The position numbers and the translations under genes were made by a program. From Candidatus Magasanikiibacteriota bacterium (lineage in GTDB: Bacteria > Patescibacteriota > Patescibacteriia > Magasanikbacterales > GWA2-37-8), in assembly GCA_030650025.1 (NCBI GenBank), contig JAUSEN010000009.1, positions 29,144 to 93,143 on the forward strand: 64,000 nucleotides of DNA, given 5' to 3'. Of the stretch, positions 1,694 to 64,000 are shown one piece after another; the first letter of the stretch is position 1, and each line of letters opens with the position of its first letter. Under the pieces are notes generated by a model. It did not search any database. It saw only the letters and a list, made by a program, of their open reading frames with translations, and had not been told where the DNA came from.

Positions 1694-1762
1694 GTCATTC
1701 CCGCGAAAGCGGGAATCTAGAAATTATCAATAAAACTGGATTCCCGCTTTCGCGGGAATGAC
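1694..1762. repeat. Double palindrome made of two inverted copies of ATTCCC-GCGAAAGC-GGGAAT (a dRS3-like ATTCCC-N8-GGGAAT unit).
   Basis: gtcattcccgcgaaagcgggaatc ... gattcccgctttcgcgggaatgac. Each arm is itself a hairpin with a GAAA loop. The element is intergenic, between two minus-strand genes. Confidence 0.6.
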
Positions 1763-1787
1763 ATGGCAGTGTTTACTCACTAAACTA

Positions 1788-2417
1788 TCAGTAAATTTTT
1801 TTGTGAATAAAAACCGTGGCCTCGCCCCACTTGAGATTGATTTTAAAACGGCCAATAATGTCGTAATACCCCGAATGTAGAGATTGCGACACGGTGATTA
1901 CCAAACTCCCTGGCCGGAGCATGGTTAAACGGCGCTTCAGCATTTCCATCATGCGTTCGTCAAAACAAGTGGTAGATACCAGCACTACATCGGCCTCCGA
2001 AAAATCCGCCCAAAAAATATTATCTCGAATAAACAATACTTCCGCTGTTGTTTTATTAACAGCGGTTTGATCACGAGGCTCTTGAGCCATCTGCAAAACT
2101 AATTTTTTCCTGGCCACCTCCGCGGCTTGGTAGAGAGCGGGGAGCAGTTCTATTCCCACTGTTTTTTTAAAATTAGCTAGCAAGGCCGCTAAAATTACGG
2201 CCTTGCCCGTGCCCGCGCCGAGATCATAAAAATTTTTGCCAGCAGTTTCGCCGAGCGCGCTGACAATTGCCTGCATGGCCTCAAAATTTATTTCGCCATA
2301 AGTGAGGGACGAATTTCGCAGGTTTAACTTTTGGCGCTCGGTAGTAGAAATTTCTGTGCCGTTAACAGCGGCATAGATATTATTAAAAATTTTTTCTGCG
2401 ACCAACTCGTTTTTCAT
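1788..2417 (-). CDS. class I SAM-dependent methyltransferase
   Basis: Gly-rich motif I DLGAGTGK and an acidic motif II downstream. Length is 209 aa. Confidence 0.6.
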   Translation of the reverse strand: MKNELVAEKIFNNIYAAVNGTEISTTERQKLNLRNSSLTYGEINFEAMQAIVSALGETAGKNFYDLGAGTGKAVILAALLANFKKTVGIELLPALYQAAEVARKKLVLQMAQEPRDQTAVNKTTAEVLFIRDNIFWADFSEADVVLVSTTCFDERMMEMLKRRLTMLRPGSLVITVSQSLHSGYYDIIGRFKINLKWGEATVFIHKKIY

Positions 2418-2560
2418 ATCGCCACGTTAGTACAACATAAATTTATGATTTCTATAGTAGCAGGGGAGAGGGGAGGGCGTCAATTTAAAAAACAAAAAAG
2501 CCGTAAGAATAAAAAAACCGTTTTTAACGGCTAAAAATATTTTAAATTTCTAGAGCCCGG

Positions 2561-2591
2561 CCCCGGCGCGCTAATCGCTAGCGCGCCGGGG
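2561..2591. terminator. GC-rich hairpin terminator of the high-GC island A gene
   Basis: ccccggcgcgcta-atcgc-tagcgcgccgggg: a 13-bp perfect stem immediately downstream of the minus-strand gene that ends at 2606. Confidence 0.6.
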
Positions 2592-2605
2592 CTTAGGCAG
2601 TGAGC

Positions 2606-3121
2606 TCACTCGAGGTACTCCCTGATCTCGATCGTGGTGATCGAGGTTCTGGCGCGGAGTTTCTGCATGATGTCGTCTACGATCAGGTGGCCGTCACCCT
2701 CCCAGCTCGCCCGCCGCGCTGGCGTGAGGCTCTGCGTGTAGTCGGCCACCACCACGTCGTGCTCATCGTGGCCGGTGTAGCCGAGCCACGGGTCCGGGTC
2801 GCCCGGCGTGTCGCCGATCTCGCCCACGGCGCCATCGATGTCGAAGTGGACCTCGACTTCAGCCACCTCGGGCGATTCGGCCACGGCGTACCAGACGAAC
2901 AGGATGCCCTCCCCCCGGCGCTCCAGGATGCCGTAGCCGTGGGCGAAGGCGCGCGCGTAGCCCTGGCGCGTCGGGTGTTCGGCAGCGAAGGCCGCCTGGT
3001 GCTCCGCGATGAAGTGCCTCTGGTGGTAGGCGTAGTGGATCACCCCGGTGAGGAGGACGACCCCGGCGAGAGCCAGGACAGCGCCGCCTGCAAGCAGAAC
3101 CAGGAACCAGTTCTTTTTCAT
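2606..3121 (-). CDS. hypothetical membrane-anchored or secreted protein (high-GC island A)
   Basis: N-terminus MKKNWFLVLLAGGAVLALAGVVLL is signal- or anchor-like. SD gaggtaatcgATG is present. The gene is about 68% GC, against the low-GC surroundings. Confidence 0.45.
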   Translation of the reverse strand: MKKNWFLVLLAGGAVLALAGVVLLTGVIHYAYHQRHFIAEHQAAFAAEHPTRQGYARAFAHGYGILERRGEGILFVWYAVAESPEVAEVEVHFDIDGAVGEIGDTPGDPDPWLGYTGHDEHDVVVADYTQSLTPARRASWEGDGHLIVDDIMQKLRARTSITTIEIREYLE

Positions 3122-3321
3122 CGATTACCTCGAGTTGAGGGAGCAGCTTTGGCCGATCTAGGCGGCCACAGCTACTCCGGTTGTTGGTGTTCAGGTCCGC
3201 CAGCCATCAATTTAGGGCCAGCGCTGAAACGCTTCATCTTAACAAGTTTTAGGCGAGCCGTCAAGGTGGCGCGGGCGGGTAAAGCTAATTATACATATTG
3301 ATAACGACCACCTGGGGATTG

Positions 3322-3356
3322 TTGACATAAAGTTAGATGTACGTTATTATGTACAT
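3322..3356 (+). promoter_or_regulatory. Sigma70-like promoter (TTGACA-17-TATTAT) with an overlapping palindromic operator ATGTAC-N8-GTACAT.
   Basis: ttgacataaagttagatgtacgttattatgtacat lies directly upstream of yefM-relE; autoregulation by the antitoxin is expected. Confidence 0.55.
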
Positions 3357-3365
3357 ATAAGACCT

Positions 3366-3725
3366 TTGCTTATGAATACCCAAACTACCATTGCTATTTC
3401 CGAAGCGCGCCGCCGGCTGTTTGACATTGCCGATGAGGTGCAACGTCCCGGCCGCTATTATACGTTTACCGATAAAGGCCGGCCAAAAACAGTTATGATG
3501 TCCGCCACCGAGTTCGAATCCTGGGCGGAAACGCTTGAGGTGATGCAGGATTTCCCGGATCTTAAAAAAGATATTGATCGCGTTAGTAAAGATATTGAAA
3601 GTGGCGCCTATCGCGATTATCCGACACTCGACGAAATATTGGCTAAACCCACTTCCAAAAAAGTTGTTACTAAAAAATATGCTATTCACCGTTCGCCTCG
3701 AGCCGCGCGCCGAAAAAGAACTTAA
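3366..3725 (+). CDS. YefM/Phd-family antitoxin
   Basis: Its N-terminus resembles the YefM fold (ISEARRRLFDIADEV...TFTDKGRPKTVMMSATEFESWAETLEV). It sits immediately upstream of and overlaps a RelE-like ORF. Confidence 0.7.
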   Translation: MLMNTQTTIAISEARRRLFDIADEVQRPGRYYTFTDKGRPKTVMMSATEFESWAETLEVMQDFPDLKKDIDRVSKDIESGAYRDYPTLDEILAKPTSKKVVTKKYAIHRSPRAARRKRT

Positions 3726-3933
3726 ACGGTTGCCATTAGATATTCAAAATCGCATTGGGGAGAACCTTCGTATTATTGCAACAAGCCCGTATTCTGGCAA
3801 AAAATTAAAGGGAGAACTCACTGGTTATTATTCTTATCGAGCGTGGCCATATCGGATAGTCTATCAAATTCTTAATCACGAATTGTTTGTCATCGTTATT
3901 CGCATCGGCCACCGACAGGGTGTTTATAAATAA
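3679..3933 (+). CDS. RelE/ParE-family toxin
   Basis: 85 aa starting MLFTVRLEPRAEKELKRLP...ILNHELFVIVIRIGHRQ, a typical RelE/ParE sequence. Start is refined to the internal ATG at 3679 of ORF 3574..3933. Confidence 0.7.
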   Translation: MLFTVRLEPRAEKELKRLPLDIQNRIGENLRIIATSPYSGKKLKGELTGYYSYRAWPYRIVYQILNHELFVIVIRIGHRQGVYK

Positions 3934-3958
3934 ATTATTTAATTTTAAAATCTAAAAT

Positions 3959-4354
3959 ATGGATGAAACAAAATCAGCTATCGATCATGAACCAGCCGAG
4001 CCGCATTTTACGTTTGGTATAAAAATAATTCAGGAAAGTTTGCCAGTGAAAAGAGGCTATAAAGATGATTTTGTTGTCTATGCAATAGATTTTAATGAAG
4101 GGTCACCGGGTACCGCCGAAGAAAAACGCCTTTTTAAGGAAGTTGTCAGGGAGTTATTTCCTAAGATATTATTACAGAGCGCACATCGGAGAAGCGGGTT
4201 ATATGATTCTCGCGCAGCCGAAGAAGCCGTTGCGGAAGCAGAAGGCAAAAAAATGGTGGCGATATTATCAGATACCGATTTTCAAAGAAAATGTATTAGT
4301 TTTTACAACGAATTATTAGCAATGCGCCGAGAGGTAGCTGGTAAATTACGGTAG
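3959..4354 (+). CDS. hypothetical protein
   Basis: 131-aa ORF followed by a bidirectional terminator. Confidence 0.35.
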   Translation: MDETKSAIDHEPAEPHFTFGIKIIQESLPVKRGYKDDFVVYAIDFNEGSPGTAEEKRLFKEVVRELFPKILLQSAHRRSGLYDSRAAEEAVAEAEGKKMVAILSDTDFQRKCISFYNELLAMRREVAGKLR

Positions 4355-4370
4355 TAATATAATTGTATTA

Positions 4371-4416
4371 AAAAACCGCTCTCATCCGCCGGCTGGCGGA
4401 GAGGGCGGTTTTTTTA
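4371..4416. terminator. rho-independent (bidirectional) terminator
   Basis: aaaaaccgctctcatccgccggctggcggagagggcggttttttt: nested GC stem flanked by A and T runs, between convergent genes. Confidence 0.7.
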
Positions 4417-4436
4417 TTAGTATCTTCGCAAGATAC

Positions 4437-5999
4437 TTACTTTTTTCGTTTCTTTCGTCGATTGTTTTTGGGCCGGTGGGTGGCTTCAGCCTGGCGAACT
4501 GCCATTTTGCGCGCTCCCAGACTCCGCAAAGCCCAAACACCGGCGCCCACTGCCGCTACGATTCCGGCAAAACCAAGTTTGCCGCAGGAATCGCGGCTTT
4601 CTTCGATGTGTAAATTTTGTTTGCCTGCCCCGGCATCGGCCGTCCGCGCTTGTTTGGTAAATGGCAGGCGCGCCTTAGACACCACTATAGATTTAAATTC
4701 TTGGCCGTGGCGAACGCGCTCTAACAATTTACGCCCCAAGTGCTCAACCTTATTGGCATCACCAGAAATTTCAACAATTTGGAACAAGGCTTGGTTGCGC
4801 GGGGTAACCGGAGTGTTGGCGCTAATTTTAATGCCGTAATAATCTGCCTCTTGCACTAATTCTTCGGCGGCCAGCTCGCGTAATTGCGCGCCTGCCATTT
4901 GGTGCCCTAAATCATCAACGTTGGCGGCATCTTCTGGCTTGGGCACATACAGCAAATCGTTGAGCGCTCCCAGTTTATCTTTGGCAAAAAGTAAATTACC
5001 AATCGCCCCGCGCGCTTCGCTCCGCCTGGCCGACAATTGCGCATACTTAGTTACTTCGGCCGAGGTTTTCATAAACGGCGGTTGTTCCCGCTCTCTAAAG
5101 TCAGGCTCAAAAGCGTGCATTAAATGCCCGGTTTCGTGGCTAATGATGTTATCAAGTTGATTAAAATTGCCGCGCAATAAATAACGGCGGTGCCTTCTCT
5201 GCGACGCGCCAATGTCAGCCCATTTGTCTTGGTCCGCCCCCTGCTTATCGGCAATATGGCCCATGATAAAGTCGTCCGTGATCATATTCAGATACTCTCG
5301 GTTAGCAACCGCCATTTGCCGTTCGGCACCGTGCTCGGCGGCCAGAGCCGGCTCATCTATAATAATATTGCCACTGTCGGTAAAGGCGGCAAAGTGCAGT
5401 AGCCGCGTATTTGTATCCGGCTGGTCAATGGCCAGGCTATTCACAAACAACACCGAACGTTCGCGCGGCTGGCCTTCAAACATTACGGTGTCCGAAGTTA
5501 TTTTATTAACATGATAAAAACCCGCTCGGGGTAATTCACTTACGATGGTGTCGCGGTCATCTTTAATTCGATCGGTACGGATAACAGTGGCAACACCAAA
5601 CGCGGCCAGCCGACGGGGAATTTCGGTAAAAAATGTTTGGTAAAATGCCGGTTCGCTGTACGCCGGCAAGTTTGGGAGTATTGTTTGGCAGGCCGCCCAA
5701 ACCCGCTGGTGATCACGGGCGTCTGGGATGCGGCCGGCCGCGACTATCGCCGGGATTGATTTTTGCAAGGCAATAATTTCCTGGACCAAGTTTTTAAGTT
5801 TTGGCGGCAGTTCGCGTTTCGCTTCCTGAAAATTAATTTTTTCATGCCTTTTGTCAAAATCGAGCTGCCGAATCAGGTTTTGTATTTCCAGACTTTGATC
5901 TTTAAATTCCTGGCCACAGGCTTCTTTTTCGCCAGCCCCGGAAATTACAGCGGCCCCAATCAGACCTATAAAATCGCGGCGGGTAATTCCTTCTCCCAT
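4437..5999 (-). CDS. secreted zinc metallopeptidase-like protein with Tat-type signal
   Basis: N-terminus TRRDFIGLIGAAV carries a twin-arginine motif. HETGH fits HExxH. The C-terminus has a hydrophobic anchor and a basic tail. Confidence 0.45.
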   Translation of the reverse strand: MGEGITRRDFIGLIGAAVISGAGEKEACGQEFKDQSLEIQNLIRQLDFDKRHEKINFQEAKRELPPKLKNLVQEIIALQKSIPAIVAAGRIPDARDHQRVWAACQTILPNLPAYSEPAFYQTFFTEIPRRLAAFGVATVIRTDRIKDDRDTIVSELPRAGFYHVNKITSDTVMFEGQPRERSVLFVNSLAIDQPDTNTRLLHFAAFTDSGNIIIDEPALAAEHGAERQMAVANREYLNMITDDFIMGHIADKQGADQDKWADIGASQRRHRRYLLRGNFNQLDNIISHETGHLMHAFEPDFREREQPPFMKTSAEVTKYAQLSARRSEARGAIGNLLFAKDKLGALNDLLYVPKPEDAANVDDLGHQMAGAQLRELAAEELVQEADYYGIKISANTPVTPRNQALFQIVEISGDANKVEHLGRKLLERVRHGQEFKSIVVSKARLPFTKQARTADAGAGKQNLHIEESRDSCGKLGFAGIVAAVGAGVWALRSLGARKMAVRQAEATHRPKNNRRKKRKK

Positions 6000-6038
6000 A
6001 TAATTGAATTGAGTTCTGACGTTTTAAATTTATAAAAT

Positions 6039-6509
6039 TTAGTGTCGGAACAAGCCACCCATCCCATGCTTTAATTTCTCCCACCAGGTGTCTTTCGTAC
6101 GCAGCTCAACTACCCCGAGGATAAACAGAATTGTCGAAGTTAAGGCCGAGCCAACGCAGTATATGCAAACAGCTTTAATAACATAGAGCTGGAGATACAC
6201 AAACCACGCCGAAGCCAAAAAGCCGAGCGGCGTCAGAATGGCCGCGGCGGTGAGCCATTTTTTATTTTGGCTTTCCAAATACGCCACGCTTAAGATCAAG
6301 ACTGCTAAATAATAAATAGCCCCGAGTAACGCCACGGGGATCTTAAATATCAGGGCGTATTTACTGGTGGTAACTAATTCACAGCCTACGATTACGGAAC
6401 ACGGCGGTACCACCCCGCGATAATGCTCAACCGCGAGGTAGCTCGCGTCCAAAAATCCTAAGAAGCTAACCAGCAAAAAAATTATTCCTAACAGTTGACG
6501 ACGAAGCAT
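6039..6509 (-). CDS. vitamin K epoxide reductase (VKOR) family membrane protein
   Basis: 4-5 TM helices with a CIYC (CxxC) motif and loop cysteines. Adjacent to DsbA-like genes. Confidence 0.7.
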   Translation of the reverse strand: MLRRQLLGIIFLLVSFLGFLDASYLAVEHYRGVVPPCSVIVGCELVTTSKYALIFKIPVALLGAIYYLAVLILSVAYLESQNKKWLTAAAILTPLGFLASAWFVYLQLYVIKAVCIYCVGSALTSTILFILGVVELRTKDTWWEKLKHGMGGLFRH

Positions 6510-6512
6510 AAG

Positions 6513-7319
6513 CTATTTGTTAAGGGCTTCTTGGACAGCCGTGCGCAAATCATTAAACGAACGAAGTTCCAGTTTGCGGCCGTTTAAGAAAAATGATGGC
6601 GTAGAGTTAACGCCGCTCGCTTCGCCGCCGCGCAATTGCGCCAGCACCGTGCTTTTTACCTCGGCGCTAGTTAAATCTTTGTTAAACCGGTCCATGTTTA
6701 ACCCCAGCTCTTGAGCAAAGCCAGTAAACATAGCGCGGGCGTTGTTGCTGTTGCTCCACGCTTGTTGGGTAGCGAATAATTTGTCATGCATCTCCCAAAA
6801 TTTGCCCTGGCGCGCGGCCGCTTCGGCTACTTCGGCGCTCAATTGGCCAAATTTGTGCGAGGGGAGAGGAAAGTAACGATAAACGAACCTCACTTCTGTT
6901 TGGAACTCGCTAATCAGATCTTTCACAAACGGTTCGGCATTGGCGCAAGCTGGGCATTGAAAATCGCTATACTCTATAAAAGTAGTGGAGGCGGCTAAGT
7001 TGCCCAGAATATTTTCCGTATTCAGAACCGGCGGCAAAGCCGCCACGCTCTCCCCGCTGTTCAGCGGCGCGCTCGGCGCGTCTGGCAGGCTGGCGCTTAG
7101 TTTAATTAAACCATATAGCACTCCGGCTACAACTACTACGACCGTGCCCCATACCAGCGCGCGCTGTTTAGATTGGGATTTAACAGCCGCGTCTTTCCGT
7201 TCTAGTTTAGCCTGCCTTTTAAGTTCACGCCTTTCTTTTTTAGTCAGATTTTTGTTTTCAATATCCATATCCATAAAAAAGTTCAATATAAAATGCGCGG
7301 AGCGCTTTAGAGAGCTCAT
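6513..7319 (-). CDS. DsbA-like thioredoxin-fold oxidoreductase, membrane anchored
   Basis: CPAC active site (FQCPACANAEP), N-terminal basic region plus TM. Confidence 0.7.
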   Translation of the reverse strand: MSSLKRSAHFILNFFMDMDIENKNLTKKERRELKRQAKLERKDAAVKSQSKQRALVWGTVVVVVAGVLYGLIKLSASLPDAPSAPLNSGESVAALPPVLNTENILGNLAASTTFIEYSDFQCPACANAEPFVKDLISEFQTEVRFVYRYFPLPSHKFGQLSAEVAEAAARQGKFWEMHDKLFATQQAWSNSNNARAMFTGFAQELGLNMDRFNKDLTSAEVKSTVLAQLRGGEASGVNSTPSFFLNGRKLELRSFNDLRTAVQEALNK

Positions 7320-7358
7320 TGCCCCCGCTCTCCGCGCACTTCGCTTAACAGTTTAATA

Positions 7359-8123
7359 TTATAATTTAGCGTCAATAGCCGCTTTGATCTGTTCGTAGGG
7401 CACGGCTCCAGAGATCAATTGCGCGTTGCCGTCCTTATCCACCAAAAACGAACCCGGTGTGCCCTGCACGCCCGCGGAGGCGCCCGCGTTCATCTGGTCT
7501 GTTACGCGGCTGGCATATTTGCCTGAATCCAAACAGGTTTGGAACTTGCTTTGGTTAACACCGACTTCGGCGGCCAAGGCGCCTAATTTGTCGAGCGCGA
7601 ACCCGTAGCCATTTGAAGTGGTGCGTTCAAAGATTTTATCAGCATACGCGTAAAATGCTTTACTTCCACCCTGTTCGCCAATACATTCCGCGGCCTCGGC
7701 TTCTTTTTGAGCGTTAGCATGGAACGAGAGCGGGTAGTGGCGGAAGACGATTTTTACTTTTCCCGCGTAATTATCCCGCACTTGTTTTACTGTGTCATGG
7801 AAACGTTTGCAGAATGGGCATTCAAAGTCCGTATAAGCGATTAACGTGAGTGGGGCATTTTTATCTCCCAAAATATAGTCATCTTTAGAGAGCGGCGGCA
7901 CAGTGCCAGTCGGGGCCGCGTCGGGGGCGGCGGTGGGCGCTCCGGTGGTTGGTACTGCCTGGTAGATGTCAGCGCTTCGGCCTTTAAGCATTATTCCCAG
8001 TAGAATAAAAAATCCAATGGCGCACAAAACTAATAGGCCACCCACGAGCCCGACTACTAATGCCGCTTTGGGCGACAGTTGGTTAAAAAAGCTAGCTTTG
8101 TTTTGGTTCTGATTTTCTTCCAT
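7359..8123 (-). CDS. DsbA-like thioredoxin-fold oxidoreductase, membrane anchored
   Basis: CPFC active site (FECPFCKRFH) and an N-terminal TM. Confidence 0.7.
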   Translation of the reverse strand: MEENQNQNKASFFNQLSPKAALVVGLVGGLLVLCAIGFFILLGIMLKGRSADIYQAVPTTGAPTAAPDAAPTGTVPPLSKDDYILGDKNAPLTLIAYTDFECPFCKRFHDTVKQVRDNYAGKVKIVFRHYPLSFHANAQKEAEAAECIGEQGGSKAFYAYADKIFERTTSNGYGFALDKLGALAAEVGVNQSKFQTCLDSGKYASRVTDQMNAGASAGVQGTPGSFLVDKDGNAQLISGAVPYEQIKAAIDAKL

Positions 8124-8212
8124 ATTTATTATGGTTAGATTAAAAGTTAATTAATTTGTTTAATAATTATAGCGGGTTGTAATTAAGACGTCAATGGGGA
8201 AAACTTGTTATT

Positions 8213-10549
8213 TTACTTCATTATTCCGGTGCTAAAACGGGCGAATTCCCAGAATAAGGCCGAGAAGAATAATGTCATGATGACAGGCGCCGCGAGTGAC
8301 ACCCAATTGCGCTTCCCGGGTTTAAACCAGCGCAACGTCAGAGAATTTGTCACGACTGAGACAGATGACAAGGCCATGGCCAGGCCGGCGAGTTCGGGTT
8401 TAAGCACGAGACCTATTCCCGCGAAAACTCGGGCCGCGATGGGGATCCCAACCACATTGTAAAACAAAGCAAAAAACAAATTTTGTTTAATTTTGTTCAT
8501 GGTTTGTTTCGAGAGTCCAATCGCTCCGACTACATCACGGAGGTCATTTTTCATGACTACCACTCCGCCTGTTTCCATCGCCACATCAGTTCCCGCGCCC
8601 ATCGCGATGCCGAGGTCTGCCTGCGCCAAAGCCGGCGCGTCATTAATTCCGTCACCCACCATCCCGACAAACATTTTTTTCTCTTGCAATTTCTTAATTT
8701 CCTCTACTTTGCCTTCTGGTAAAACTCCGGCAATAATATTACGAATTCCGGCTTGCGCTGCTATTGCTGTAGCCGTGCGTTCGTTATCCCCAGTTATCAT
8801 GTACACTTCTATTCCCATTTTCTCTAATTGTAAGACGGCTTCGCGCGATGTAGTTTTTAAGGTGTCTGCTACGGCCACTAGTCCCAATATTTTATTTTCA
8901 TCAGACACAATCATTACCGTTTTCCCCTCGCGCTCAAGGTTTATAACTGTTGTTTCGTCAGTAAGGCTTAATTTTAAGTTTTGCATTTTAAGTAACGCCC
9001 GGTTGCCGATAAAATATTTTTTCTCTCCAATCCGGCCCGCTATCCCTTGCCCGGGTATGGCTGTAAACTCACTGACCGCGATCAGTTCAACTTTATCTTC
9101 TTTAGTTTTGTTTACAATCGCTTCAGCCAAGGGGTGCTCGGATAAATTTTCAATCGATCCGGCAATCTGCAAGATATTGTCGTTATTTATTTTTAGGATG
9201 TCTGTTACTACCGGCTTTCCATTAGTAAGCGTGCCGGTTTTATCAAATACCATGGCGTTTATTTTGCAGGCCATCTCAAGTGGTTCGCCGCCTTTCACTA
9301 GTATCCCATATTCCGCGCCCTTGCCTGTGCCGACCATGAGGGCGGTGGGTGTCGCGAGGCCGAGCGCGCAAGGGCAAGCGATCACGATTACCGCGGTAAA
9401 AGTCATGAGCGCGAACGTAAGGGTACTGCCCAATACGAAGTACCAGATTATAAAAGCCAGGGCCGCCGCTACTAGCACCGTTGGCACAAAATATTGTGAG
9501 ACCCGATCCGCGAAATCTTGAATGCGGGCGCGCGAGCCTTGAGCCTCTTCCACCAGCCGAATAATTTGCGCCAAAACAGTTTCGTTACCCACTTTGGTTA
9601 CTGTAAATTCTAAACTGCCGAGTTTGTTTATAGTCGCGCCAACCACGCTGTCGCCCACCTGTTTTTCTACGGGCAAACTCTCGCCCGAGATCATGGATTC
9701 GTCCACCGACGAATGCCCGCGCGCGACCTTGCCATCCACGGGAATTTTCTCGCCTGGTTTTACGAGTACCATGTCGCCCGGTATAACTTCGTTAATTGGA
9801 ATATCAAAAGTTTTTCCGTCCCGAATGACATGCGCGATTTTTGGTTGTAGGCCCATCAACTTTTTAATCGCTTCCGAAGTTTTCCCTTTGGTCCTCGCTT
9901 CTAACCATTTGCCCATTGTTACAAACGTGATCAAGAAAGCGGCAGTTTCAAAATATAATTCGGGGATTTTGGCTCCCGCCAGCCCCAGCACGCTTTCTTT
10001 ACTAATAGCGTAAACCAAGAAATTAACCACGCTGTAAATATAAGCCGTGGTGGTCCCAATGGCAATCAAGCTATCCATGCCAAACATCTTCATGCGGATA
10101 CTGCTCCAAGTGCCTTTGTAAAACCCTCTGCCTACTATAAATTGAACTGGCGTCGCGAGTATAAAAGACACGATGCCGACATAGGGGAGTAGAACTGCGC
10201 CTCCTGGCAACCAACCAAAATAATCTAGCATCATGAAGTAAAGCATCGGCGCGGATAAAACTGCGCTCCACGCGAACAGCTTGAAGTAGTGGGCGATTTC
10301 CCGGGCGCGTTTGTGGCTTTCATGTTCCGTGTCGCTCGTATCCACGATCTCCGCGCCATAACCGGCCTTTTTCACTGCTTCTATAATTTTTTTGGTGGTA
10401 ATTTTTGCTTCGTCAAATTCCACTCGCGCTTTTTCGTTCGCAAAATTAACATTAGAGTTATTTATGCCCTCTGTTTTGCTAAGCGCCTTTTCAATTAATT
10501 TGGCACAACTGGCGCAGTGCATGCCTGATATAGTCAAATCTGTTTTCAT
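8213..10549 (-). CDS. copA: copper-translocating P1B-type ATPase
   Basis: N-terminal HMA domain GMHCASCA, a CPC motif in TM6 (ACPCALG), DKTGTLT phosphorylation site and a GDGINDAP hinge. Length is 778 aa. Confidence 0.9.
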
Positions 10550-12969: not shown

Positions 12970-13105
12970 AGACGTAGAATTATTTAAAAGCTACCAGTAA
13001 TATACTGCTCGAACTGATTTTTGTAAAGCAGATGTATGGTACCAATGCAGCGGCTAGTGTAGAAATAAAAATATCCCGCCACAGCAGGATATTTTAAGAT
13101 TTTTT

Positions 13106-13167
13106 CAAGACCACCCTCGATATACCGGCAAGAACTTGTAAGTATATCGAGTGTGAAGGTGGTCTTG
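13106..13167. repeat. long imperfect hairpin at the left junction of high-GC island B
   Basis: caagaccaccctcgatatac ... gtatatcgagtgtgaaggtggtcttg. Confidence 0.5.
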
Positions 13168-13191
13168 TGTGTGTAGAACCGTTCGAGCGAA

Positions 13192-13222
13192 CCCTCCCTC
13201 CAGCGACACGCCGGAGGGAGGG
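13192..13222. terminator. GC-rich hairpin terminator of the island B gene
   Basis: ccctccctcc-agcgacacgcc-ggagggaggg: a 10-bp stem downstream of the minus-strand gene that ends at 13245. Confidence 0.6.
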
Positions 13223-13244
13223 TTGTACACCCAGCCGCGGCGCG

Positions 13245-13793
13245 TTACTCGTCGTCCAACTTCATCCGGGTATGAATCCGCGGCGGCGGGGCTCGCGGCG
13301 GATCCGGGGGCGGGGGCGGCGGTCGCGGAGCGACCAGGCGGGGTTCACGCTGGATCGCTTCCGCGATCGCGGCTTCGATCGCCGCGGCGAGCCCCGGCTC
13401 GCGGGGCGGCAGTCCACCGATGTCGAAGCCCAGGCTTCCCCAGCTCACGGTAGCGTCCGCGCGGAACTTGCCAGCGGATACAACCTGCCCCTGTCTGCGG
13501 TAGTCCACTTCCACCTCCTCCGCGCACTTCTCCGGGTCGCTGGCGAGTAGGGGGTGCTTTGTGTAGATGGCCACCAACCGCGCGTGCCGGTCAACGTTGC
13601 CGACCAGCAGGGTGCCGTCCGAGAGCAAGACGAGTTTCCCTACGTACTTGTGATGGTCGTACAGCCTCTCGAAAGTCGGAACTTCTGCTTCCGGGTAATT
13701 CTGGTGGCAGAATGCCACCACGTTCGTCACGTTCGTGGTGCGCATTGGTCGCCTCCTGCCCACCACCCTACGCAATTTTTTATGGGTTGTCAA
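13245..13793 (-). CDS. hypothetical protein with Pro-rich C-terminus (high-GC island B)
   Basis: 182 aa at about 66% GC with a strong SD (aggaggcgaccaATG). C-terminus reads PRPPPPPPDPPRAPPP. No recognisable family. Confidence 0.4.
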   Translation of the reverse strand: MTTHKKLRRVVGRRRPMRTTNVTNVVAFCHQNYPEAEVPTFERLYDHHKYVGKLVLLSDGTLLVGNVDRHARLVAIYTKHPLLASDPEKCAEEVEVDYRRQGQVVSAGKFRADATVSWGSLGFDIGGLPPREPGLAAAIEAAIAEAIQREPRLVAPRPPPPPPDPPRAPPPRIHTRMKLDDE

Positions 13794-13840: not shown

Positions 13841-13872
13841 GTAGGGAACCCCGCCAAGGCGGGGTTCCCTAC
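13841..13872. repeat. REP family-2 hairpin (GTAGGGA...TCCCTAC); also serves as the recA terminator.
   Basis: gtagggaaccccgccaaggcggggttccctac. Preceded by the conserved leader aaaaaatattttccgtaaaatttt that also sits at 18604-18630. Confidence 0.65.
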
Positions 13873-13894: not shown

Positions 13895-14980
13895 TTATTC
13901 TGTTCCAGCTAGCGCTGTGTCGGGTGAGGCGGCTGAAGCCGTTTCCGGTGGTTCGCCCCTGTCCACTACTTCCAGCACTTGATCACGGATTTTTTTCATT
14001 AGTTTGGGGTTGGCTTTGAGGTAAGCTTTAGCGGTTTCGCGCCCCACTCCTAATTTTTCTTCGCCCCCGTCTTTGGTGGGGTACAAATAACTATTTCCTT
14101 TTTTGTCCACTATTTTATAAAGCACTGCCGTGTCGAGCGTGTCGCCCGCGAGCGAAATGCCTTCGTTATACATGATGTCGAATTCGGTGGTGCGGAAGGG
14201 CGCGGCGACTTTATTTTTCACGATTTTAACCTTAACGCGGTTGCCGATAATTTTATCGCCCTGTTTAATTTGCGCCGCGCGGCGAATTTCAATGCGGATA
14301 GACGAATAAAATTTTAAAGCCATGCCTCCGGTGGTAGTTTCTGGGTTGCCAAACACAATGCCAATTTTCATGCGTGTTTGGTTGATAAAGATGACGATGG
14401 TTCGGGATTTACTCACAATGCCGGTGAGCTTACGCAGAGCCTGGCTCATAAGGCGAGCTTGTAACCCCATGTGCGAATCGCCCATGTCGCCATCAATTTC
14501 TTTCTGGGGTACGAGCGCCGCCACCGAATCAATTACTACCACATCCACGGCATTGCTTCGAACCAGTGTTTCCACGATTTCGAGCGCCTGTTCGCCCGTG
14601 TCTGGTTGCGAAATTAATAATTCATCAACTTTAACGCCGATTTTTTTGGCATAATCCGGGTCGAGGGCATGCTCGGCGTCCACAAACGCCGCCAGCCCGC
14701 CGAGCTTCTGTACCTCGGCTACAATGTGCTGGGCGAGCGTGGTTTTGCCGCTCGATTCTGGCCCGTAAATTTCAATGACGCGGCCGCGTGGCACGCCCTT
14801 GACGCCAAGCGCGATATCTAAGGATAGACAGCCGGTTGTTACCGCGTCTACCTGCATGGTTTTGGAGTCGCCAAATTTCATAATGGCGCCCGCGCCGAAT
14901 TTGGTTCTAATTTGTTCAATCGCCGTGGCGGCGGCCTTAGACTTTTCTGAATCCTCGTTTTTAATATTTGTTTTAGACAT
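13895..14980 (-). CDS. recA: recombinase RecA
   Basis: Walker [11 protein letters not shown]1/L2 regions and overall collinearity with RecA. Length is 361 aa. Confidence 0.95.
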
Positions 14981-15024
14981 AAAATATAACTGCGTTCCCC
15001 CAATCGCTTAGTATTAATTATAAA

Positions 15025-15738
15025 TTAATAGTTTGGTTCACTTGCTCCCAAACTAACTTTTTCGCCATATTTCGGCGCTCGTACCACCACGTGCCGCGTA
15101 ATGGTAGTTTTTTTGCCGTGCTTTTTTATAGCTTCAAAAGTTAAAGTACTCACACCTTCGGACACATCCACCTTCATGTTAAACCGGCCCGCTTCGTTTA
15201 CCATCACATCTTGGCCATTGACTTTTAAGGTTACTTCGGGTTCAGTTTGCCCCTGAATGGCGAGCGTCAGGCTGTTTACCAGCTCGCCTTCTTGCGGCGA
15301 AATTAGTGTCAGGCGCGGCGGTTGCAAAACGCCATGAATCTGCCAAAGTAAGTAGCCGGCAAATAATACCACCGCGCCTAGCAGTAAGCTGGTGCGCAGA
15401 GCGGTAGTAACGGACGCGAAGCGTGAAAACACAATTTGCCGGTGCGGGTGGACTTGCTCGGCGTCGAGGAGCCCGGCTTCGCGCGCCAATTGTTCTAAGC
15501 ATTCCTTTTCGTTAAGCCCGACTGCCTGCGCGAATTCTTTTATATAAGCGCGCCGAAATGCCACGGCTTTAGGCAATTTTTTAAATTCGCCATTTTCGAT
15601 TGCTTCCAGGTACGGCGTGGCAATGTGGGTGATTTGGCCAATATATTCGAGCGTTAACTTGGCCTCCTCGCGCGCTTCTTTTAATCTCTGGCCCAGGCGC
15701 CTGGTAGCCTCCAATTTTTTATAACAAAATATCGTCAT
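15025..15738 (-). CDS. RodZ-like HTH (XRE) membrane protein
   Basis: N-terminal HTH (RLKEAREEAKLTLEYIGQITHI), a single TM, and a C-terminal beta domain (DUF4115-like). Confidence 0.55.
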   Translation of the reverse strand: MTIFCYKKLEATRRLGQRLKEAREEAKLTLEYIGQITHIATPYLEAIENGEFKKLPKAVAFRRAYIKEFAQAVGLNEKECLEQLAREAGLLDAEQVHPHRQIVFSRFASVTTALRTSLLLGAVVLFAGYLLWQIHGVLQPPRLTLISPQEGELVNSLTLAIQGQTEPEVTLKVNGQDVMVNEAGRFNMKVDVSEGVSTLTFEAIKKHGKKTTITRHVVVRAPKYGEKVSLGASEPNY

Positions 15739-15743
15739 AATTA

Positions 15744-18188: not shown

Positions 18189-18348
18189 AAATAATTATAA
18201 GCATTCCGCCAAAGGCGGATTGTTAACTGACACAAAATTTTTCAAATTTTGGTCGTTAACAACAAAATTCGTGCCTTTATGCACTCGTCTCCCGTCTTTA
18301 TTATAGCACAAAAAAGCCCTCGAGCGTAGTCGAGAGGCTTGTGCACAG

Positions 18349-18510
18349 ACTCTGGCCAATTTACTGCGAGAAGAGCTGCATGTCTTAGCTAACGGACCGA
18401 ATCTAGAAAACGCTGCTAGAACACCGGAGTGTTCAAAGCAAGAGAGAGACTGTTTTTTAGCGTCCTGCCCGGTTGAGACATCAACTCTTTCGCAGTAAAC
18501 TGGCCACAGC
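18349..18510 (-). ncRNA. Candidate structured RNA or 5' leader upstream of ftsK.
   Basis: A 19/20-bp long-range helix (ggccaatttactgcgagaag pairs with cttTcgcagtaaActggcc) encloses about 120 nt with internal hairpins. It lies between the predicted ftsK promoter and the ftsK start. No family was identified. Confidence 0.3.
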
Positions 18511-18599: not shown

Positions 18600-18630
18600 T
18601 GTGACCAAAAAATATTGTCCGTAAAATTTT

Positions 18631-18679: not shown

Positions 18680-18741
18680 GAAGTTCGCCACCCGGCTGTT
18701 TCCAAAAATTTTAGAAATAGCAGGGTAGTGGGGCGAACTTC
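18680..18741. repeat. imperfect long hairpin at the left junction of high-GC island C
   Basis: gaagttcgccacc...ggtagtggggcgaacttc. Confidence 0.45.
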
Positions 18742-18760: not shown

Positions 18761-19003
18761 TCACCGGCGGGCGTAGCGCCGCCTCTCCTGGTTGCAGCGC
18801 CAAGCCAGGAACCCTGCCAGGAGGCAGAGGCGCACGATGGTGAGCCAGGGGAGAGCGCTGGCCCGGGCGCTGATGAAGGCGAAGCTCATCGCCTGGCAAA
18901 CGCCCCTGACTTCTTTCCGCTTCACGATTTTCAGACCGCGCCGCAGCGCGGCCAGGTGGCAGCCCAGCGAGCAGGCTGCGATTTCGATCGTGTATCTTTT
19001 CAT
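18761..19003 (-). CDS. small (80 aa) membrane protein, high-GC island C
   Basis: MKRYTIEIAACSLGCHLAAL...LPWLTIVRLCLLAGFLAWRC with SD gaggaggctgccATG. The tool ORF runs to 19195, but the GC switch and SD favour the ATG at 19003. Confidence 0.35.
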   Translation of the reverse strand: MKRYTIEIAACSLGCHLAALRRGLKIVKRKEVRGVCQAMSFAFISARASALPWLTIVRLCLLAGFLAWRCNQERRRYARR

Positions 19004-19106
19004 GGCAGCCTCCTCAAGTTGGGGTTGACTGTTATCTAAACATGTTTTAAAAAAATAGGCAAATAAAAACCCTGTACCAGAACGGTACAGGGTTAATATA
19101 TTTTTG

Positions 19107-19172
19107 AAGTTCGTCGTCACCTTCTGGGGATAATTTAATATTTTCCCAAGAAGGTGATGCGACGACGAACTT
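19107..19172. repeat. imperfect long hairpin inside island C, between its two genes
   Basis: gaagttcgtcgtcaccttct ... agaaggtgatgcgacgacgaacttg. Confidence 0.45.
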
Positions 19173-19225: not shown

Positions 19226-19837
19226 CTAGACGCGCGGGTGGCGCTCTCCGCGGCCGAGCAGGTTCTCGAAGAGCCCGTGCAGTTCTGCCGGGAGGTCGGC
19301 GAGCGCCTTTTCGAACGTGTCGGCCGGCTCGTGGCGGTCGATCTCGATCCTGATCCGGACCGAGAGCCCAGAGCGCGTGAAGCGCTCCTTGAGGTCGGGG
19401 CGGCTGTCGAACGCGGCCTTGAGCACCGCGCCCAGCTCCTGGGCGAGCGCCTCGGGCTCGTTGCTCTGGCTGGTCCCCGAGCCGTTGCCGCCCGCCGCCT
19501 GGTCGGTGGTGCCGCCCGTCCTGGCGGAGTTGAGCGGGTTGCCGAACATCTCGAAGAGCGAAGCGATCCCGGGCGGCATCTCGCGCGGCTGCGCGGCGAG
19601 GCCGTCGAGCTTACCTTCGTTCTGGAGACGGAGAACCTCGGCCGCGAGCGCCTTGCCCTCGGCTTTGGTGCCTCTCATGCCGAGCAGGTCGCCGACAGCG
19701 GTGTCGAGCTCGGCCCGGCTACCGAACACCACCTTCTTGCCGTCGGCGCGGTGGACCATGCCGTGCGCGCCGCAGTTGGTGCACATCTTGATCCTGGGCT
19801 TGGGCTGGTCACCCTGCCCCGTCTTCTTTCTGGTCAT
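19226..19837 (-). CDS. hypothetical protein with an N-terminal Cys cluster (high-GC island C)
   Basis: 203 aa with MCTNCGAHGMVH near the N-terminus and SD ggaaggaaggtggccaATG. Third-position GC exceeds first-position GC on this strand; the antisense ORFs show the opposite. Confidence 0.4.
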   Translation of the reverse strand: MTRKKTGQGDQPKPRIKMCTNCGAHGMVHRADGKKVVFGSRAELDTAVGDLLGMRGTKAEGKALAAEVLRLQNEGKLDGLAAQPREMPPGIASLFEMFGNPLNSARTGGTTDQAAGGNGSGTSQSNEPEALAQELGAVLKAAFDSRPDLKERFTRSGLSVRIRIEIDRHEPADTFEKALADLPAELHGLFENLLGRGERHPRV

Positions 19838-20092
19838 TGGCCACCTTCCTTCCGCTCCCTCGTGATTGAGGGGAAGAAAGTCGACAACTGTTATCGCCTA
19901 TCTTCCCATCAATACGAATCAGAAAATGACTAGGAAGTGTAGCAAAAAAAGAGATATGTGTAAAGGCTCAAAATTGAACGCTGACCTTACCCTGTGGATA
20001 ATTTTTATATAAAAAGTCGGCCAAACTATTTTTTTATCTAACTTTAGCCAAAAAATTACTGCTCTTGACAACCACTTATCCGCCAGTTCCAT

Positions 20093-50848: not shown

Positions 50849-50877
50849 TTGACAAAAACCGTGATTTTGTATATGAT
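50849..50877 (+). promoter_or_regulatory. Sigma70-like promoter TTGACA-17-TATGAT, AT-rich, driving the high-GC island D gene.
   Basis: cttgacaaaaaccgtgattttgtatatgat, preceded by the direct repeat tagcgaaat x2. Confidence 0.5.
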
Positions 50878-50979: not shown

Positions 50980-51729
50980 ATGGGATCGAGGAATCTGAAG
51001 AGTGGAAGCCTGGTTCTCCAGGAGGACGTCAGGAAGGACTTCCGCGGGTCGGAAGGCATGCTGGAGCTCCTCATGACCGTTCTCACCGGTCTCCTGACGG
51101 GAACCGTGATCATCCGCTACATGGACCGGGTGAAGGGTGGCCCCGGACATCAGAGCCAGGTGCGAGCCGTCCGGTTCGATAACGTTCGCCACCAGATCAT
51201 CCTGACGGCCCAGCCGGGCGACAACAAGACCCACTGGCGGCTGTCACTCACTCTGGCGCGAACAACCGACTTAAGCAAGGTGTACGCCGCGCTCGTCGCA
51301 AGGCTCGGTGTTACTCCGGCAGAAGTAGTCGGTAACAACGGCTCACCGGGCGACCAAGCCGCTCTGCGCGTCGAGCTGGCGCGGCTCGAACAGCTTCATG
51401 GCGAGCAGAAGGCCGAGCATGATCGTCATCAGGCGGCCGAAGCCGAGCGCGCAGTTCAGCGTGAGGGGCTCGTAAATGATCGCAGGGCGCTCGAAGAGCT
51501 CATCGTCGAGGTCGACGAGGAGAGTCGGCGCGCCACTGCCGCCCGGGCCGCGGCCGAAGAAGCCCTCGAACAGACCGAGCTTGAGCTCGACGAGGTCAGG
51601 GACAAGCTCGAGGCCATCAGGAAGAAGGCCGATGCCCTCGCTGCCGCGCGTCAGCTCCTGGCCGAGGCCAACCTCGACCTCGCTGACCCGGGCGTGCTCG
51701 CGGCCCTGCGCGGAGAGCCGGCCAAGTAG
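50980..51729 (+). CDS. hypothetical TM plus coiled-coil protein (high-GC island D)
   Basis: 249 aa with TM LLMTVLTGLLTGTVII and a long Ala/Glu/Arg-rich coiled coil. The gene is about 68% GC, and the composition switch falls within about 15 nt of the start codon. Confidence 0.4.
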   Translation: MGSRNLKSGSLVLQEDVRKDFRGSEGMLELLMTVLTGLLTGTVIIRYMDRVKGGPGHQSQVRAVRFDNVRHQIILTAQPGDNKTHWRLSLTLARTTDLSKVYAALVARLGVTPAEVVGNNGSPGDQAALRVELARLEQLHGEQKAEHDRHQAAEAERAVQREGLVNDRRALEELIVEVDEESRRATAARAAAEEALEQTELELDEVRDKLEAIRKKADALAAARQLLAEANLDLADPGVLAALRGEPAK

Positions 51730-51765: not shown

Positions 51766-51790
51766 CTGCCGGTCCCGAGGCGACCGGCAG
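51766..51790 (+). terminator. GC-rich hairpin terminator of the island D gene
   Basis: ctgccggtc-ccgaggc-gaccggcag. Confidence 0.55.
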
Positions 51791-52104
51791 TACTCACAAA
51801 ACATCACTATTCAAGTGGTGTTTTTTGATGCCACAGATTTTGAAATACAAATAATTGACAAAATTTAGCATTTTTAGTACTCTTAAATTAAGACGTTTTG
51901 CCCATTATCGACGGGCAGAGCTCGTCCGCCGCGGCGGGCGGGATCGCGTTAAGAGCAGAAATCCTGCGACCATCAGTCGTTGGAGAGTAGACCTCTTCGG
52001 GAATGCCCGTTACAGCTCAAAATTAAGCGAAAGCACAAGATGGTACCGTCCAGTCATTCGACCGGACTCTTGGCACGAATATTTTCGTGTTTTTTTATTG
52101 AAAA

Positions 52105-61585: not shown

Positions 61586-61632
61586 GCGGCCGTCCTAATA
61601 AACATCTGGTGTGATGTCTGTCAGGACGGCCG
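61586..61632. terminator. GC-rich hairpin terminator of the island E gene
   Basis: gcggccgtcctaa...tcaggacggccg. Confidence 0.5.
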
Positions 61633-61656: not shown

Positions 61657-62112
61657 CTAGGCATGCTGTGCCAGCAGGTTTTCGAACGCCCGGGCCGACT
61701 CGGCCATGGCTTCGTCCTGCCGGTCCTGCCGATCCGCTACTTCTGCGGCGACCAGGGTCGCGAGCGCGAGCGCGTCGCTCGGCAAGATCTTCTCGCCAAG
61801 GTGCCGGCAGAGGATGCGCGCGAGCATCAGGCCTTGGTCAGTCTCGGGCGTGGCGGCCGAGACGCGCACGAGCCCATTTGCCAGCCGCGTGAGGATCACA
61901 GCCTTGATGTGCTCTCCGCTTCCGAGGCCGCGCTCCCGCGTGTACGCCGCGATAGCCGCGAGGAGCACCTTGGCCATCTTCGGGACGAGGTGCTCGAGGT
62001 GGGCGAGTTCGGTAGGCAGGGGAGAGATCTGCCCCGTAGCGCCAACCGCCATCGCTCCGAGTTCGAGAATGGTCCACGCCATCCTCTCTTTCACTTGCGG
62101 AACAGTGGTCAT
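61657..62112 (-). CDS. hypothetical protein (high-GC island E)
   Basis: 151 aa, about 66% GC, with SD aaaggagcggccATG. All-helical and Ala/Leu-rich. Confidence 0.35.
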   Translation of the reverse strand: MTTVPQVKERMAWTILELGAMAVGATGQISPLPTELAHLEHLVPKMAKVLLAAIAAYTRERGLGSGEHIKAVILTRLANGLVRVSAATPETDQGLMLARILCRHLGEKILPSDALALATLVAAEVADRQDRQDEAMAESARAFENLLAQHA

Positions 62113-63338: not shown

Positions 63339-63371
63339 CACCACTCACCGCGCTTCGCGCGGTGAGTGGTG
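63339..63371 (-). terminator. GC-rich perfect hairpin terminator after upp
   Basis: caccactcaccgcgc-ttc-gcgcggtgagtggtg. Confidence 0.55.
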
Positions 63372-63382: not shown

Positions 63383-64000
63383 TCAGCCGCTCCGGATGAC
63401 GGCATCGGAGGGCCCGTTGAGCTTGTTTCCCATGTCGCCGGCGCCCGGCCAGATATAGTCGTACGCCGTGAGCCCCCCGTCAAGCGCGCCCGTAAAGAGG
63501 TGCGCGTTGGGGATGGCGTTCAAGAACCGCTCGGCGCCCTCGGGCGCCGCGATCAGGCTGAGCGCCACGTGCCAGCATGCCGTTCCCGGCAAGCTGGCGT
63601 AGTGCTCTACGGCCCTAAGCAGCGAGCCGCCGGTTGCGAGCATCGGGTCCGGGTAGACCACGATCGCACCGTTGACGGTACTCCCCGTCTTGCTTCCTTG
63701 GATTTCCACTCCGTTGACGTGGCCGGTCGCGTCGGTCGTCCGGTTCATGGTGAGGATGTCCATGCGCGCGTTCTCGAACCCGAGCGCCGTCAGCGCATCG
63801 AGCACGACATCCGAGGGGAGGAGTCCGCCGCGCGCGATCGCCGTCACCACCACGCTCGTCTGGGTGTTCGGCACCAGGCCGCGCCAAACCCCTCTCTCGC
63901 CCAACTCGGTCTGGAGCGGGGTGGGCACGCTGGCCTCACGCAGCAGGAACAGCTGGTTGATCATCTCCATCGTGAGGAGGTGGTAGAGCTCGCGCACCCA
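63383..64000 (-). CDS. upp: uracil phosphoribosyltransferase (high-GC island F); N-terminus at or beyond the window edge.
   Basis: PRPP loop DPMLATGGS, AAPEG, and a C-terminal YIWPGAGDMGNKL. About 68% GC. Confidence 0.8.
   Translation of the reverse strand, partial: WVRELYHLLTMEMINQLFLLREASVPTPLQTELGERGVWRGLVPNTQTSVVVTAIARGGLLPSDVVLDALTALGFENARMDILTMNRTTDATGHVNGVEIQGSKTGSTVNGAIVVYPDPMLATGGSLLRAVEHYASLPGTACWHVALSLIAAPEGAERFLNAIPNAHLFTGALDGGLTAYDYIWPGAGDMGNKLNGPSDAVIRSG

Follow-up and report, generated by a model that had tools for sequence, protein, structure and literature searches.

High-GC gene islets of probable foreign origin between the core genes of a Candidatus Magasanikbacteria chromosome

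The 64-kb window analyzed here (the term denotes the whole stretch of DNA) lies on a 184,627-nt contig of a metagenome-assembled genome (MAG) and contains six short islets, designated A to F, with a GC content well above that of the surrounding genes. The islet proteins, Q7K39_01545 to Q7K39_01835, are annotated at NCBI as belonging to Candidatus Magasanikbacteria, an ultra-small bacterium of groundwater type in the candidate phyla radiation (CPR, or Patescibacteria), and not to the Saccharibacteria-like organism that a preliminary description of the sequence had envisaged. The mean GC content was 0.473 for the whole window and 0.459 for the native DNA without the islets. Together the six islets comprise 4,495 nt, or 7.0% of the window, at a GC content of 0.649. 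Individual islets ranged from 0.61 to 0.66, compared with 0.46 for the native DNA, and every one of them was 3.1-4.2 standard deviations above the native 500-nt windows, the maximum of which was 0.58. All six GC islands of the preliminary description were recovered, both by GC at the third codon position (GC3) and by a 150-nt sliding GC window with a threshold of 0.60, which defined the following extents.

Islet A: 2543-3208
Islet B: 13138-13688
Islet C: 18683-19029 and 19140-19898
Islet D: 50981-51838
Islet E: 61576-62180
Islet F: 63292 to the window end

The seven islet genes and the signals that accompany them were located as listed here.

2516..2532, minus strand: native AT-type intrinsic terminator (hairpin and U-run) downstream of islet A, from the terminator scan and the sequence
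2560..2592, minus strand: GC hairpin of islet A, 14-bp perfect stem, no U-tract, 13 nt past the stop codon, -24.4 kcal/mol, z = -5.4
2606..3121, minus strand: gene A, 171 aa, Q7K39_01545, GC1/2/3 = 0.70/0.42/0.89
3236..3264, minus strand: promoter-like site TTGACG-17-TAAGAT (TG-extended) upstream of A, from the promoter scan
13068..13095, minus strand: native U-tract terminator downstream of islet B, from the scan
13190..13224, minus strand: GC hairpin of islet B, 16-nt arms 94% complementary, without a U-tract
13245..13745, minus strand: gene B, 166 aa, Q7K39_01605, Pro-rich C-terminus, GC3 0.78 (for the 182-aa open reading frame)
18761..19003, minus strand: gene C1 of islet C, 80-aa Cys-rich membrane peptide, G3 + C3 = 0.84
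19068..19094, minus strand: native U-tract terminator between C2 and C1, from the scan
19226..19837, minus strand: gene C2 of islet C, 203 aa, Q7K39_01625, GC3 0.92
19936..19964, minus strand: promoter-like site TTTACA-17-TACACT upstream of C2, from the scan
50849..50877, plus strand: promoter-like site TTGACA-17-TATGAT, AT-rich, upstream of islet D, 11/12 matches
50980..51729, plus strand: gene D, 249 aa (223 aa from the NCBI start at 51058), Q7K39_01790, GC3 0.77
51767..51791, plus strand: 9-bp GC hairpin of islet D, without a U-tract
~51794-51826, plus strand: native hairpin and U-run after islet D, read from the sequence and the fold
61587..61632, minus strand: 46-nt imperfect hairpin of islet E, GC-rich outer stem, 3' of gene E, 20-nt arms 85% complementary, z = -6.2
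61657..62112, minus strand: gene E, 151 aa, all-helical, Q7K39_01835, GC3 0.81
63339..63371, minus strand: GC hairpin of islet F, 15-bp perfect stem, no U-tract
63383..64000, continuing past the window end, minus strand: gene F, predicted divergent uracil phosphoribosyltransferase (UPRTase), 238 aa in full, GC3 0.89

The order of the elements on the gene strand was an AT-rich, sigma-70-like promoter-like site, a Shine-Dalgarno (SD) sequence, the coding sequence (CDS), a GC hairpin lacking a U-run and a native U-run terminator. The GC-rich stretch was essentially the SD, the CDS and the 3' hairpin; in islet A, moderately GC-rich DNA reached about 170 nt upstream of the start codon. The promoter-like site of islet B, TTGACA-17-TAGGGT, was seen in the sequence and lay under the scan threshold. 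Ribosome-binding sites of the GGAGG type precede all seven genes, as had been described, and the perfect 9-15-bp stem-loop said to follow each open reading frame was present in A, D and F (14, 9 and 15 bp). The hairpin arms of B and E are imperfect, and C1, the one islet gene not followed by a strong GC hairpin, has no perfect stem and is followed only by a long imperfect hairpin. Of the protein sizes, the 182 aa given previously for B is 166 aa in the NCBI annotation, while protein D has 223 aa by the NCBI call and 249 aa by the Logan call. In protein A, a membrane helix at the N-terminus precedes a domain of no known family; protein D has a membrane helix and a coiled coil. AlphaFold2 models computed without an alignment had a mean confidence (pLDDT) of 49 for A, in which the helix at residues 3-48 was the sole confident part, and 54 for E, values too low for a fold search. 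The predicted membrane helices in A, C1 and D suggest that these proteins may have roles in the cell envelope.

The GC3 values of the genes were bimodal, 0.49 +/- 0.075 (range 0.32-0.63) for 52 native genes versus 0.77-0.92 for the seven islet genes. The codon positions of the latter followed the order GC3 > GC1 > GC2, which bore out the GC3 > GC1 bias noted for the islands previously. The ratio of Gly, Ala, Arg and Pro to Phe, Tyr, Met, Ile, Asn and Lys (GARP/FYMINK) was 1.7-2.7 for the islet proteins, which are rich in the first four residues, compared with 0.6-1.0 for the native proteins. The three-base periodicity and the GARP-rich make-up indicate that the islets are real coding sequence shaped under a high-GC regime, not random GC-rich DNA. 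The relative synonymous codon usage of the islet genes had a correlation of 0.34 with the native genes and correlated about equally with Actinomycetota, Myxococcota and Chloroflexota references of high GC content (r = 0.82-0.93).

Sharp compositional boundaries might also be produced by an assembly or binning chimera, in which reads of a high-GC organism had been joined into a contig of low GC, an alternative that the preliminary description had raised. The islet boundaries are sharp and, in addition, the 3' edge of islet F is precisely where two Logan contigs of run SRR13727527 join, overlapping by 24 nt (63303-63326), a break that may reflect a strain variant. However, the Logan contigs, which were produced by a different assembler, were 100% identical to the window at 1737-9121, 14232-21243, 47494-53363 and 60712-63326, and the contig spanning 1737-9121, 12,447 nt in length, also carries B. 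All of the A-E junctions were inside unbranched contigs of this kind, so islets A-E are not assembler chimeras. Several other observations were inconsistent with a chimera, 1) the native syntenic gene order resumes six times, each time after 350-860 nt, 2) each islet is intergenic, and its promoter-like site, SD and terminator are in frame with it, and 3) like units are present in the single-cell genome L005 and in other MAGs (related loci are designated by L numbers). The chimera was rejected for A-E, and for the islets as a whole it is extremely improbable.

The syntenic sites in the relatives were compared for the C, D, E and F slots; no relative spanned the A or B sites. The closest relatives (L002, with an rpoB 81% identical; best ileS 64%) were too distant for insertion boundaries to be placed at the nucleotide level. 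In L098, L091 and L096, the divergent neighbors rpiB and ileS are 260-400 bp apart with no insert, while the spacing in the window is 1.8 kb and holds D and a bAvd-like gene. The UPRTase gene and ruvA are directly adjacent in L082, L085 and L171; in the window this slot holds an arginase gene of native GC and islet E. Similarly, nif3 and ruvA are adjacent in many relatives, and in the window a gene resembling the REP-associated tyrosine transposases (RAYT; REP, repetitive extragenic palindrome) lies between them. The FtsK|rpoB slot of the sister L002 is occupied by another GC-rich gene (9124-9477, GC3 0.72) that is not homologous to C1 or C2. A second islet is found elsewhere in L002 (2316-2870, GC3 0.80), and neither L002 islet resembles any islet of the window. 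In the single-cell genome L005, the GC3 of the gene at 3697-3954 is 0.77, compared with 0.37 for the locus, and GC3-outlier genes were also found in L004, L098 and L121. No Pfam family was assigned to seven of the eight outliers tested. The one that has a family, a PNP_UDP_1 nucleoside phosphorylase in L092 (913-1785), upstream of ileS, has a GC3 of 0.61 where the median for the locus is 0.38, and adds a second nucleotide-salvage gene of foreign-looking composition in a CPR genome. Thus, where the same islands were sought in sister genomes, the C, D and E slots were empty or held other cargo, and F was present in several relatives. Since the same slots are empty or differently filled in relatives, they appear to be variable integration hot spots between core genes with a fast turnover of cargo. 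The database titles of two of these loci look wrong. L002 (CAZPCV010000003.1) and L008 are labeled 'uncultured Gammaproteobacteria', whereas their rpoB sequences are 81% and 65% identical to that of the window, the non-CPR rpoB sequences from the same search are at most about 60% identical, and L002 shares the recA-FtsK order.

Homology searches returned few matches for the islet proteins other than F. Protein A matched only itself in 5.8 billion clusters and in an exhaustive search of 1.84 billion representatives, and C2 had only a self-match in large protein databases. B, C1, D and E were checked by exact-cluster look-up, in family libraries, in phage and plasmid collections and in IMG/VR, and the look-up showed all of the islet proteins to be singletons at 90% identity. 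Searches of A-E against Pfam, PHROG, NCBIfam and PADLOC gave nothing significant, only sub-threshold matches with E-values of at least 0.002, below the curated cut-offs. In a sequence search of the PDB, B had only spurious matches to interleukin-11 (E = 0.03) and C2 none, while the window had no match in Rfam at the gathering thresholds. The six genes A, B, C1, C2, D and E are thus lineage-specific, with no family match, and A, C1 and D encode membrane-anchored proteins. The actinobacterial donor proposed earlier was not borne out, in that no actinobacterial match was found (A and C2 matched only themselves) and the codon usage does not discriminate among the three high-GC phyla. The donor could possibly have been a high-GC host in physical association with the organism, a proposal that is unsupported.

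The classic phage moron is an autonomous transcription unit of deviant composition that encodes a small orphan protein, and the islets could be phage-delivered morons or the decayed remnants of prophages or plasmids from high-GC hosts. They resemble phage morons in their independent promoter-gene-terminator architecture, each being a single transcription unit with its own promoter-like site and terminator, in their compositional contrast and in their small orphan proteins. Moreover, toxin-antitoxin and abortive-infection genes are nearby, specifically Phd/ParE beside islet A (3366-3933), an MNT/HepT pair (30922-31538) and an AbiEii-family toxin (37220-38500). Unlike morons, however, the islets reside in a cellular chromosome among housekeeping genes, and they lack similarity to viral proteins. 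The best PHROG match of A-E, with an E-value of 0.002, was not significant, and concatenated tblastn against 50,697 phage records and 72,556 plasmids gave no match to A-E, the only matching part being upp at about 30% identity. In IMG/VR there was no relative of B, D or E, and the flanks are the core genes recA, FtsK, rpoB, rpiB, ileS, ruvA and gatB rather than phage genes. A phage or plasmid derivation is accordingly very unlikely.

Long imperfect hairpins had been described at three of the islet junctions, and all three were confirmed, with z-scores of -6.4 to -8.9 relative to shuffled sequences.

13106..13167, minus strand: bulged 62-nt hairpin at the 3' junction of islet B, with a 10-bp outer stem, a one-sided 6-nt bulge and an inner stem, z = -7.5
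18680..18741, minus strand: bulged 62-nt hairpin at the 3' junction of C1, z = -6.4
19107..19172, minus strand: bulged 66-nt hairpin at the 3' junction of C2, z = -8.9

Each of these 62-67-nt hairpins is built of a 10-11-bp outer stem, a bulge of 5-6 nt on one side only, in the 5' arm, and an inner stem. They have SAAG...CTTS ends, a trailing A-run and native-like GC, and are situated between the foreign part of the unit and the native terminator. The ends of the C1 hairpin, GAAGTTCG...CGAACTTC, are common to the C2 hairpin. The four other islet genes lack such a structure. A scan for the architecture, which replaced a covariance model because a MAFFT alignment of the three hairpins was structurally inconsistent, detected no fourth copy in the window and no convincing example in 824 kb of related loci. 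Two interpretations of the hairpins were ruled out. They are not terminators, since no U-run follows them on either strand, and they are not attC sites, the ends being SAAGWYC...GRWCTTS compared with the core consensus RYYYAAC...GTTRRRY.

The hairpins nevertheless raise the question of whether the islets are cassettes taken up by a hairpin-directed, orientation-specific mechanism, either integron-like or linked to the RAYT-like Y1 transposases, with the bulged hairpins as the recombination sites. All three share one architecture, lie 3' of islet genes in the same orientation and have, in the sequences scanned, no convincing counterpart elsewhere. The units are cassette-shaped (SD, CDS and hairpin), C1 and C2 are in tandem, and two Y1_Tnp-family open reading frames are present together with GTAG-headed palindromes, two of which adjoin islets B and C. 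The likeness to integron cassettes and to clusters of attC sites lacking an integrase (CALINs) extends to a promoter-proximal open reading frame, a short 5' leader, mostly orphan proteins and a composition unlike that of the host. The 3' hairpin of such cassettes is imperfect, about 57-141 nt long, and contains an unpaired spacer or extrahelical bases; B, C1 and C2 have imperfect 3' hairpins of 62-67 nt with unpaired bases in the bulge, and the other four genes have none. However, neither an IntI or other tyrosine-recombinase integrase (among the window proteins scanned) nor an attI/Pc platform was found in the window, and the hairpin ends are not attC core sites and do not fit the R''/R' consensus. 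The hairpin accompanies only three of the seven genes and was absent from the L002 and L005 islets. Furthermore, the islets do not form an array but are scattered, every unit having a promoter-like site and a native terminator of its own, and RAYTs are known to mobilize REPs, not cargo genes. On balance, cassette capture of this kind is distinctly unlikely.

A related proposal is a dedicated, orientation-specific capture process, in which foreign units with the shape of a transcript (SD, CDS and terminator hairpin), perhaps derived from the mRNA of a high-GC partner, would be joined to a host-type bulged hairpin and inserted upstream of native terminators. The persistently high GC of the UPRTase gene would then result from ongoing re-capture, with that partner as the source each time. 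Such a process would be a functional analog of integron cassette formation with other sites and enzymes, and we regard it as highly doubtful.

The RAYT-like open reading frame (60393-60977, plus strand) matched Pfam Y1_Tnp with an E-value of 9.9e-8 and has the HUH motif NHVHAII and a C-terminal RQYIAANP. Four palindromes of the form GTAGGGA-N15-19-TCCCTAC were found at 13841-13872, 18631-18659, 60309-60341 and 60711-60739, where the chance expectation was 0.01. One is in frame within the RAYT-like open reading frame, one is just upstream of it, and two double as terminator-like hairpins beside B and C. The second Y1_Tnp-family open reading frame (42055-42780, plus strand, E = 3.7e-6) has a palindrome family of its own, AGAGACGTTGCACTGCAACGTCTCT, at its 5' end and inside it (repeats 42048-42126 and 42429-42525). 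It is located in a polyamine cluster that includes an arginine decarboxylase, a deoxyhypusine-synthase-like gene and agmatinase.

Islet F differs from the others in having recognizable relatives. The sequence matched the Pfam UPRTase model PF14681 with an E-value of 6.7e-19 (68.6 bits, cut-off 27) and the UPRTases of the PDB over the full length (E ~1e-15), and the phosphoribosyl pyrophosphate (PRPP) loop motif, DPMLATGGS, is conserved as in canonical Upp (PF14681, TIGR01091). Unlike canonical Upp, F scored below the NCBIfam equivalog cut-offs (77.8 versus 114 and 77.6 versus 208) and its C-terminal uracil-binding motif is altered, PGAGDMGNK compared with PGLGDAGDR in more typical homologs. 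F is thus predicted to be a divergent UPRTase that functions in pyrimidine salvage. The subfamily is small, its members thus far coming from CPR genomes and a Myxococcota MAG. The nearest relatives, 46-52% identical, are on CPR contigs with the same order, tmk-DUF7847-gatB-UPRTase-ruvA, and remoter versions occupy the same neighborhood in L171/L172 (27%) and L092 (33%). The closest non-CPR homologs, 36-38% identical, are from the 65%-GC Myxococcota MAG. All CPR versions were 29-38% identical to the Myxococcota protein, and in a neighbor-joining tree the Myxococcota group was nested among the CPR sequences.

The UPRTase gene raised a further alternative, that high GC is a gene-specific, lineage-wide property maintained by selection, biased gene conversion or continual re-copying from a high-GC partner, and that the islets are long-standing residents. 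The GC3 of the gene was raised in five CPR lineages, 0.89 in the window with flanks at about 0.52, 0.70 and 0.71 with flanks at about 0.5, 0.68 compared with 0.42-0.55 and 0.67 compared with 0.38 (flanks 0.38-0.56 overall), and more weakly in a sixth, 0.63 compared with 0.58. The gene is beside gatB or ruvA throughout. Among the window, L082 and L085, its divergence tracks that of its neighbors (UPRTase 49-52%, tmk 54%, DHFR 46% identity), and the nucleoside phosphorylase of L092 is likewise GC3-raised. Among the islets, it is F that supports this alternative. Across groups, however, the UPRTase is incongruent with the genomes, in that L171 and L092 share 24% identity in this protein and 75% in gatB, and L171 is nearer to the Myxococcota protein (38%), which favors replacement. 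An F-like gene is absent beside ruvA in L097-L099, and the highly expressed native genes rpoB, rpoC and recA have ordinary GC3. The islet genes other than F are not conserved residents, since no relative was returned for A or C2, or for B, C1, D and E at the level of 90%-identity clusters, and the L002 slot carries other genes. As an account of the islets in general, a gene-specific property is unlikely.

For F itself, the recent capture implied by the preliminary description failed the test set out there. The closest relatives are lower-GC CPR genomes with the same synteny, in which the gene has a GC3 of 0.63-0.71 compared with about 0.5. Instead, F belongs to the accessory genes of the ruvA/gatB hot spot, as a salvage gene that is old, repeatedly exchanged or both. 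In L097 (17029-21655), L098 (18670-22914) and L099 (17422-20609), pyrF-, pyrE- and pyrD-like genes of native GC, read from the translations, adjoin ruvA, which suggests that salvage replaced de novo synthesis at the ruvA locus in the lineage of the window. The gene is preceded by a native promoter and a hairpin/U-run leader, and the nearest CPR relatives have a leader of the same kind. Three CPR lineages (L088 6770-6890, L082 9838-9930 and L176 1480-1590) share the design, a consensus promoter and then a hairpin and U-run just before the start codon of the UPRTase-like gene, and no match to this leader was found in Rfam at relaxed E-values. Its layout suggests that expression may be controlled by pyrimidine-sensitive attenuation.

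Taken together, the islets are probably genes of foreign origin, from genomes of about 62-70% GC or their mobile elements, that are now lodged, each as one expression unit, in variable hot-spot slots between genes of the Candidatus Magasanikbacteria chromosome. Each unit retains a donor-type ribosome-binding site, the CDS and a U-less GC hairpin. The repeated acquisition of single genes proposed at the outset is supported by the compositionally foreign coding units of one or two genes between native genes and by the empty or differently filled sites in relatives.

Several observations weigh against this interpretation, 1) no donor homologs were found for A-E, so that foreign origin is argued from composition and the presence/absence patterns, not from phylogeny, 2) a scan of the proteins and the islet flanks in the window disclosed no integrase, tRNA or direct repeats as signatures of mobility, 3) the Logan contigs were probably built from the MAG's own reads and thus tested the assembler, not the sample, while the junction at the 3' edge of islet F has no independent confirmation, and 4) the GC3 of F was 0.63-0.89 in every CPR lineage that carries it. 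Identities of 24-52% among the F proteins imply that synonymous sites are saturated, so a simple recent transfer followed by amelioration fails for F. To account for this gene, either it was exchanged repeatedly or a force specific to it is at work; a force of the latter kind might in principle affect the other islets as well. With respect to mobility, the sole transposase-like genes seen were the two RAYT-like Y1 genes, one of which is 0.6 kb from islet E.

If the islets are of foreign origin, the DNA may have been taken up and then recombined into intergenic spacers, by an illegitimate or a homology-facilitated route, and could have spread between related CPR lineages via the homologous flanks. 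Non-coding donor flanks would then have been removed by deletion in the streamlined genome. On this scheme, A-E would be young, and F older or exchanged repeatedly.

In 125 aquifer Patescibacteria, islands and individually transferred genes were found to account for up to 13% of genome length, and the transfers were mostly within Patescibacteria, yet the putative donors were diverse (PMC12455944). The islets described here resemble those transfers at hot spots in their deviant codon usage, core-gene flanks, cargo that varies among relatives and many proteins without a family. They differ in that the units are tiny (350-860 nt), are trimmed to SD, CDS and hairpin, and lack an integrase, a tRNA and direct repeats. 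In addition, the contrast in GC3 is extreme (about +0.35), seven genes occur within 64 kb, and there is no donor match.

Other elements of the window were noted near the islets or in intergenic DNA. Downstream of islet D, a structured leader (51870-52091) with a U-tract terminator (52072-52091) precedes a bAvd-like/23S-rRNA-IVP gene (52133-52486) and ileS. The leader resembles a T-box-type attenuator but had no Rfam match even at E = 0.1. The arginase-family gene beside islet E (62202-63194) has an upstream promoter-like site (63280-63308, minus strand) and then a terminator-like hairpin and U-run (63205-63230, minus strand) that ends 10 nt before the start codon and may be an attenuator. A near-perfect 28-nt inverted repeat, 96% complementary (-33.7 kcal/mol), is located in the intergenic DNA at 1693-1763.

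The islets are best read as a clean instance of an already known process, ordinary horizontal gene transfer, and leave two small puzzles beyond it, the bulged junction hairpins and a UPRTase gene that is GC-rich across lineages. That 7% of a housekeeping region consists of cleanly bounded genes of about 65% GC indicates that reduced genomes keep acquiring, and from the signals around the genes appear to express, single foreign genes at fixed hot spots. At one such spot, beside ruvA, there is a pyrimidine-salvage gene in the position that de novo pyr genes have in some relatives. If the capture process outlined above were true, the islets would carry a readable signature of the host, and if a donor were found in the same community, they would offer a direct clue as to which organism is the physical partner of this Magasanikbacterium.

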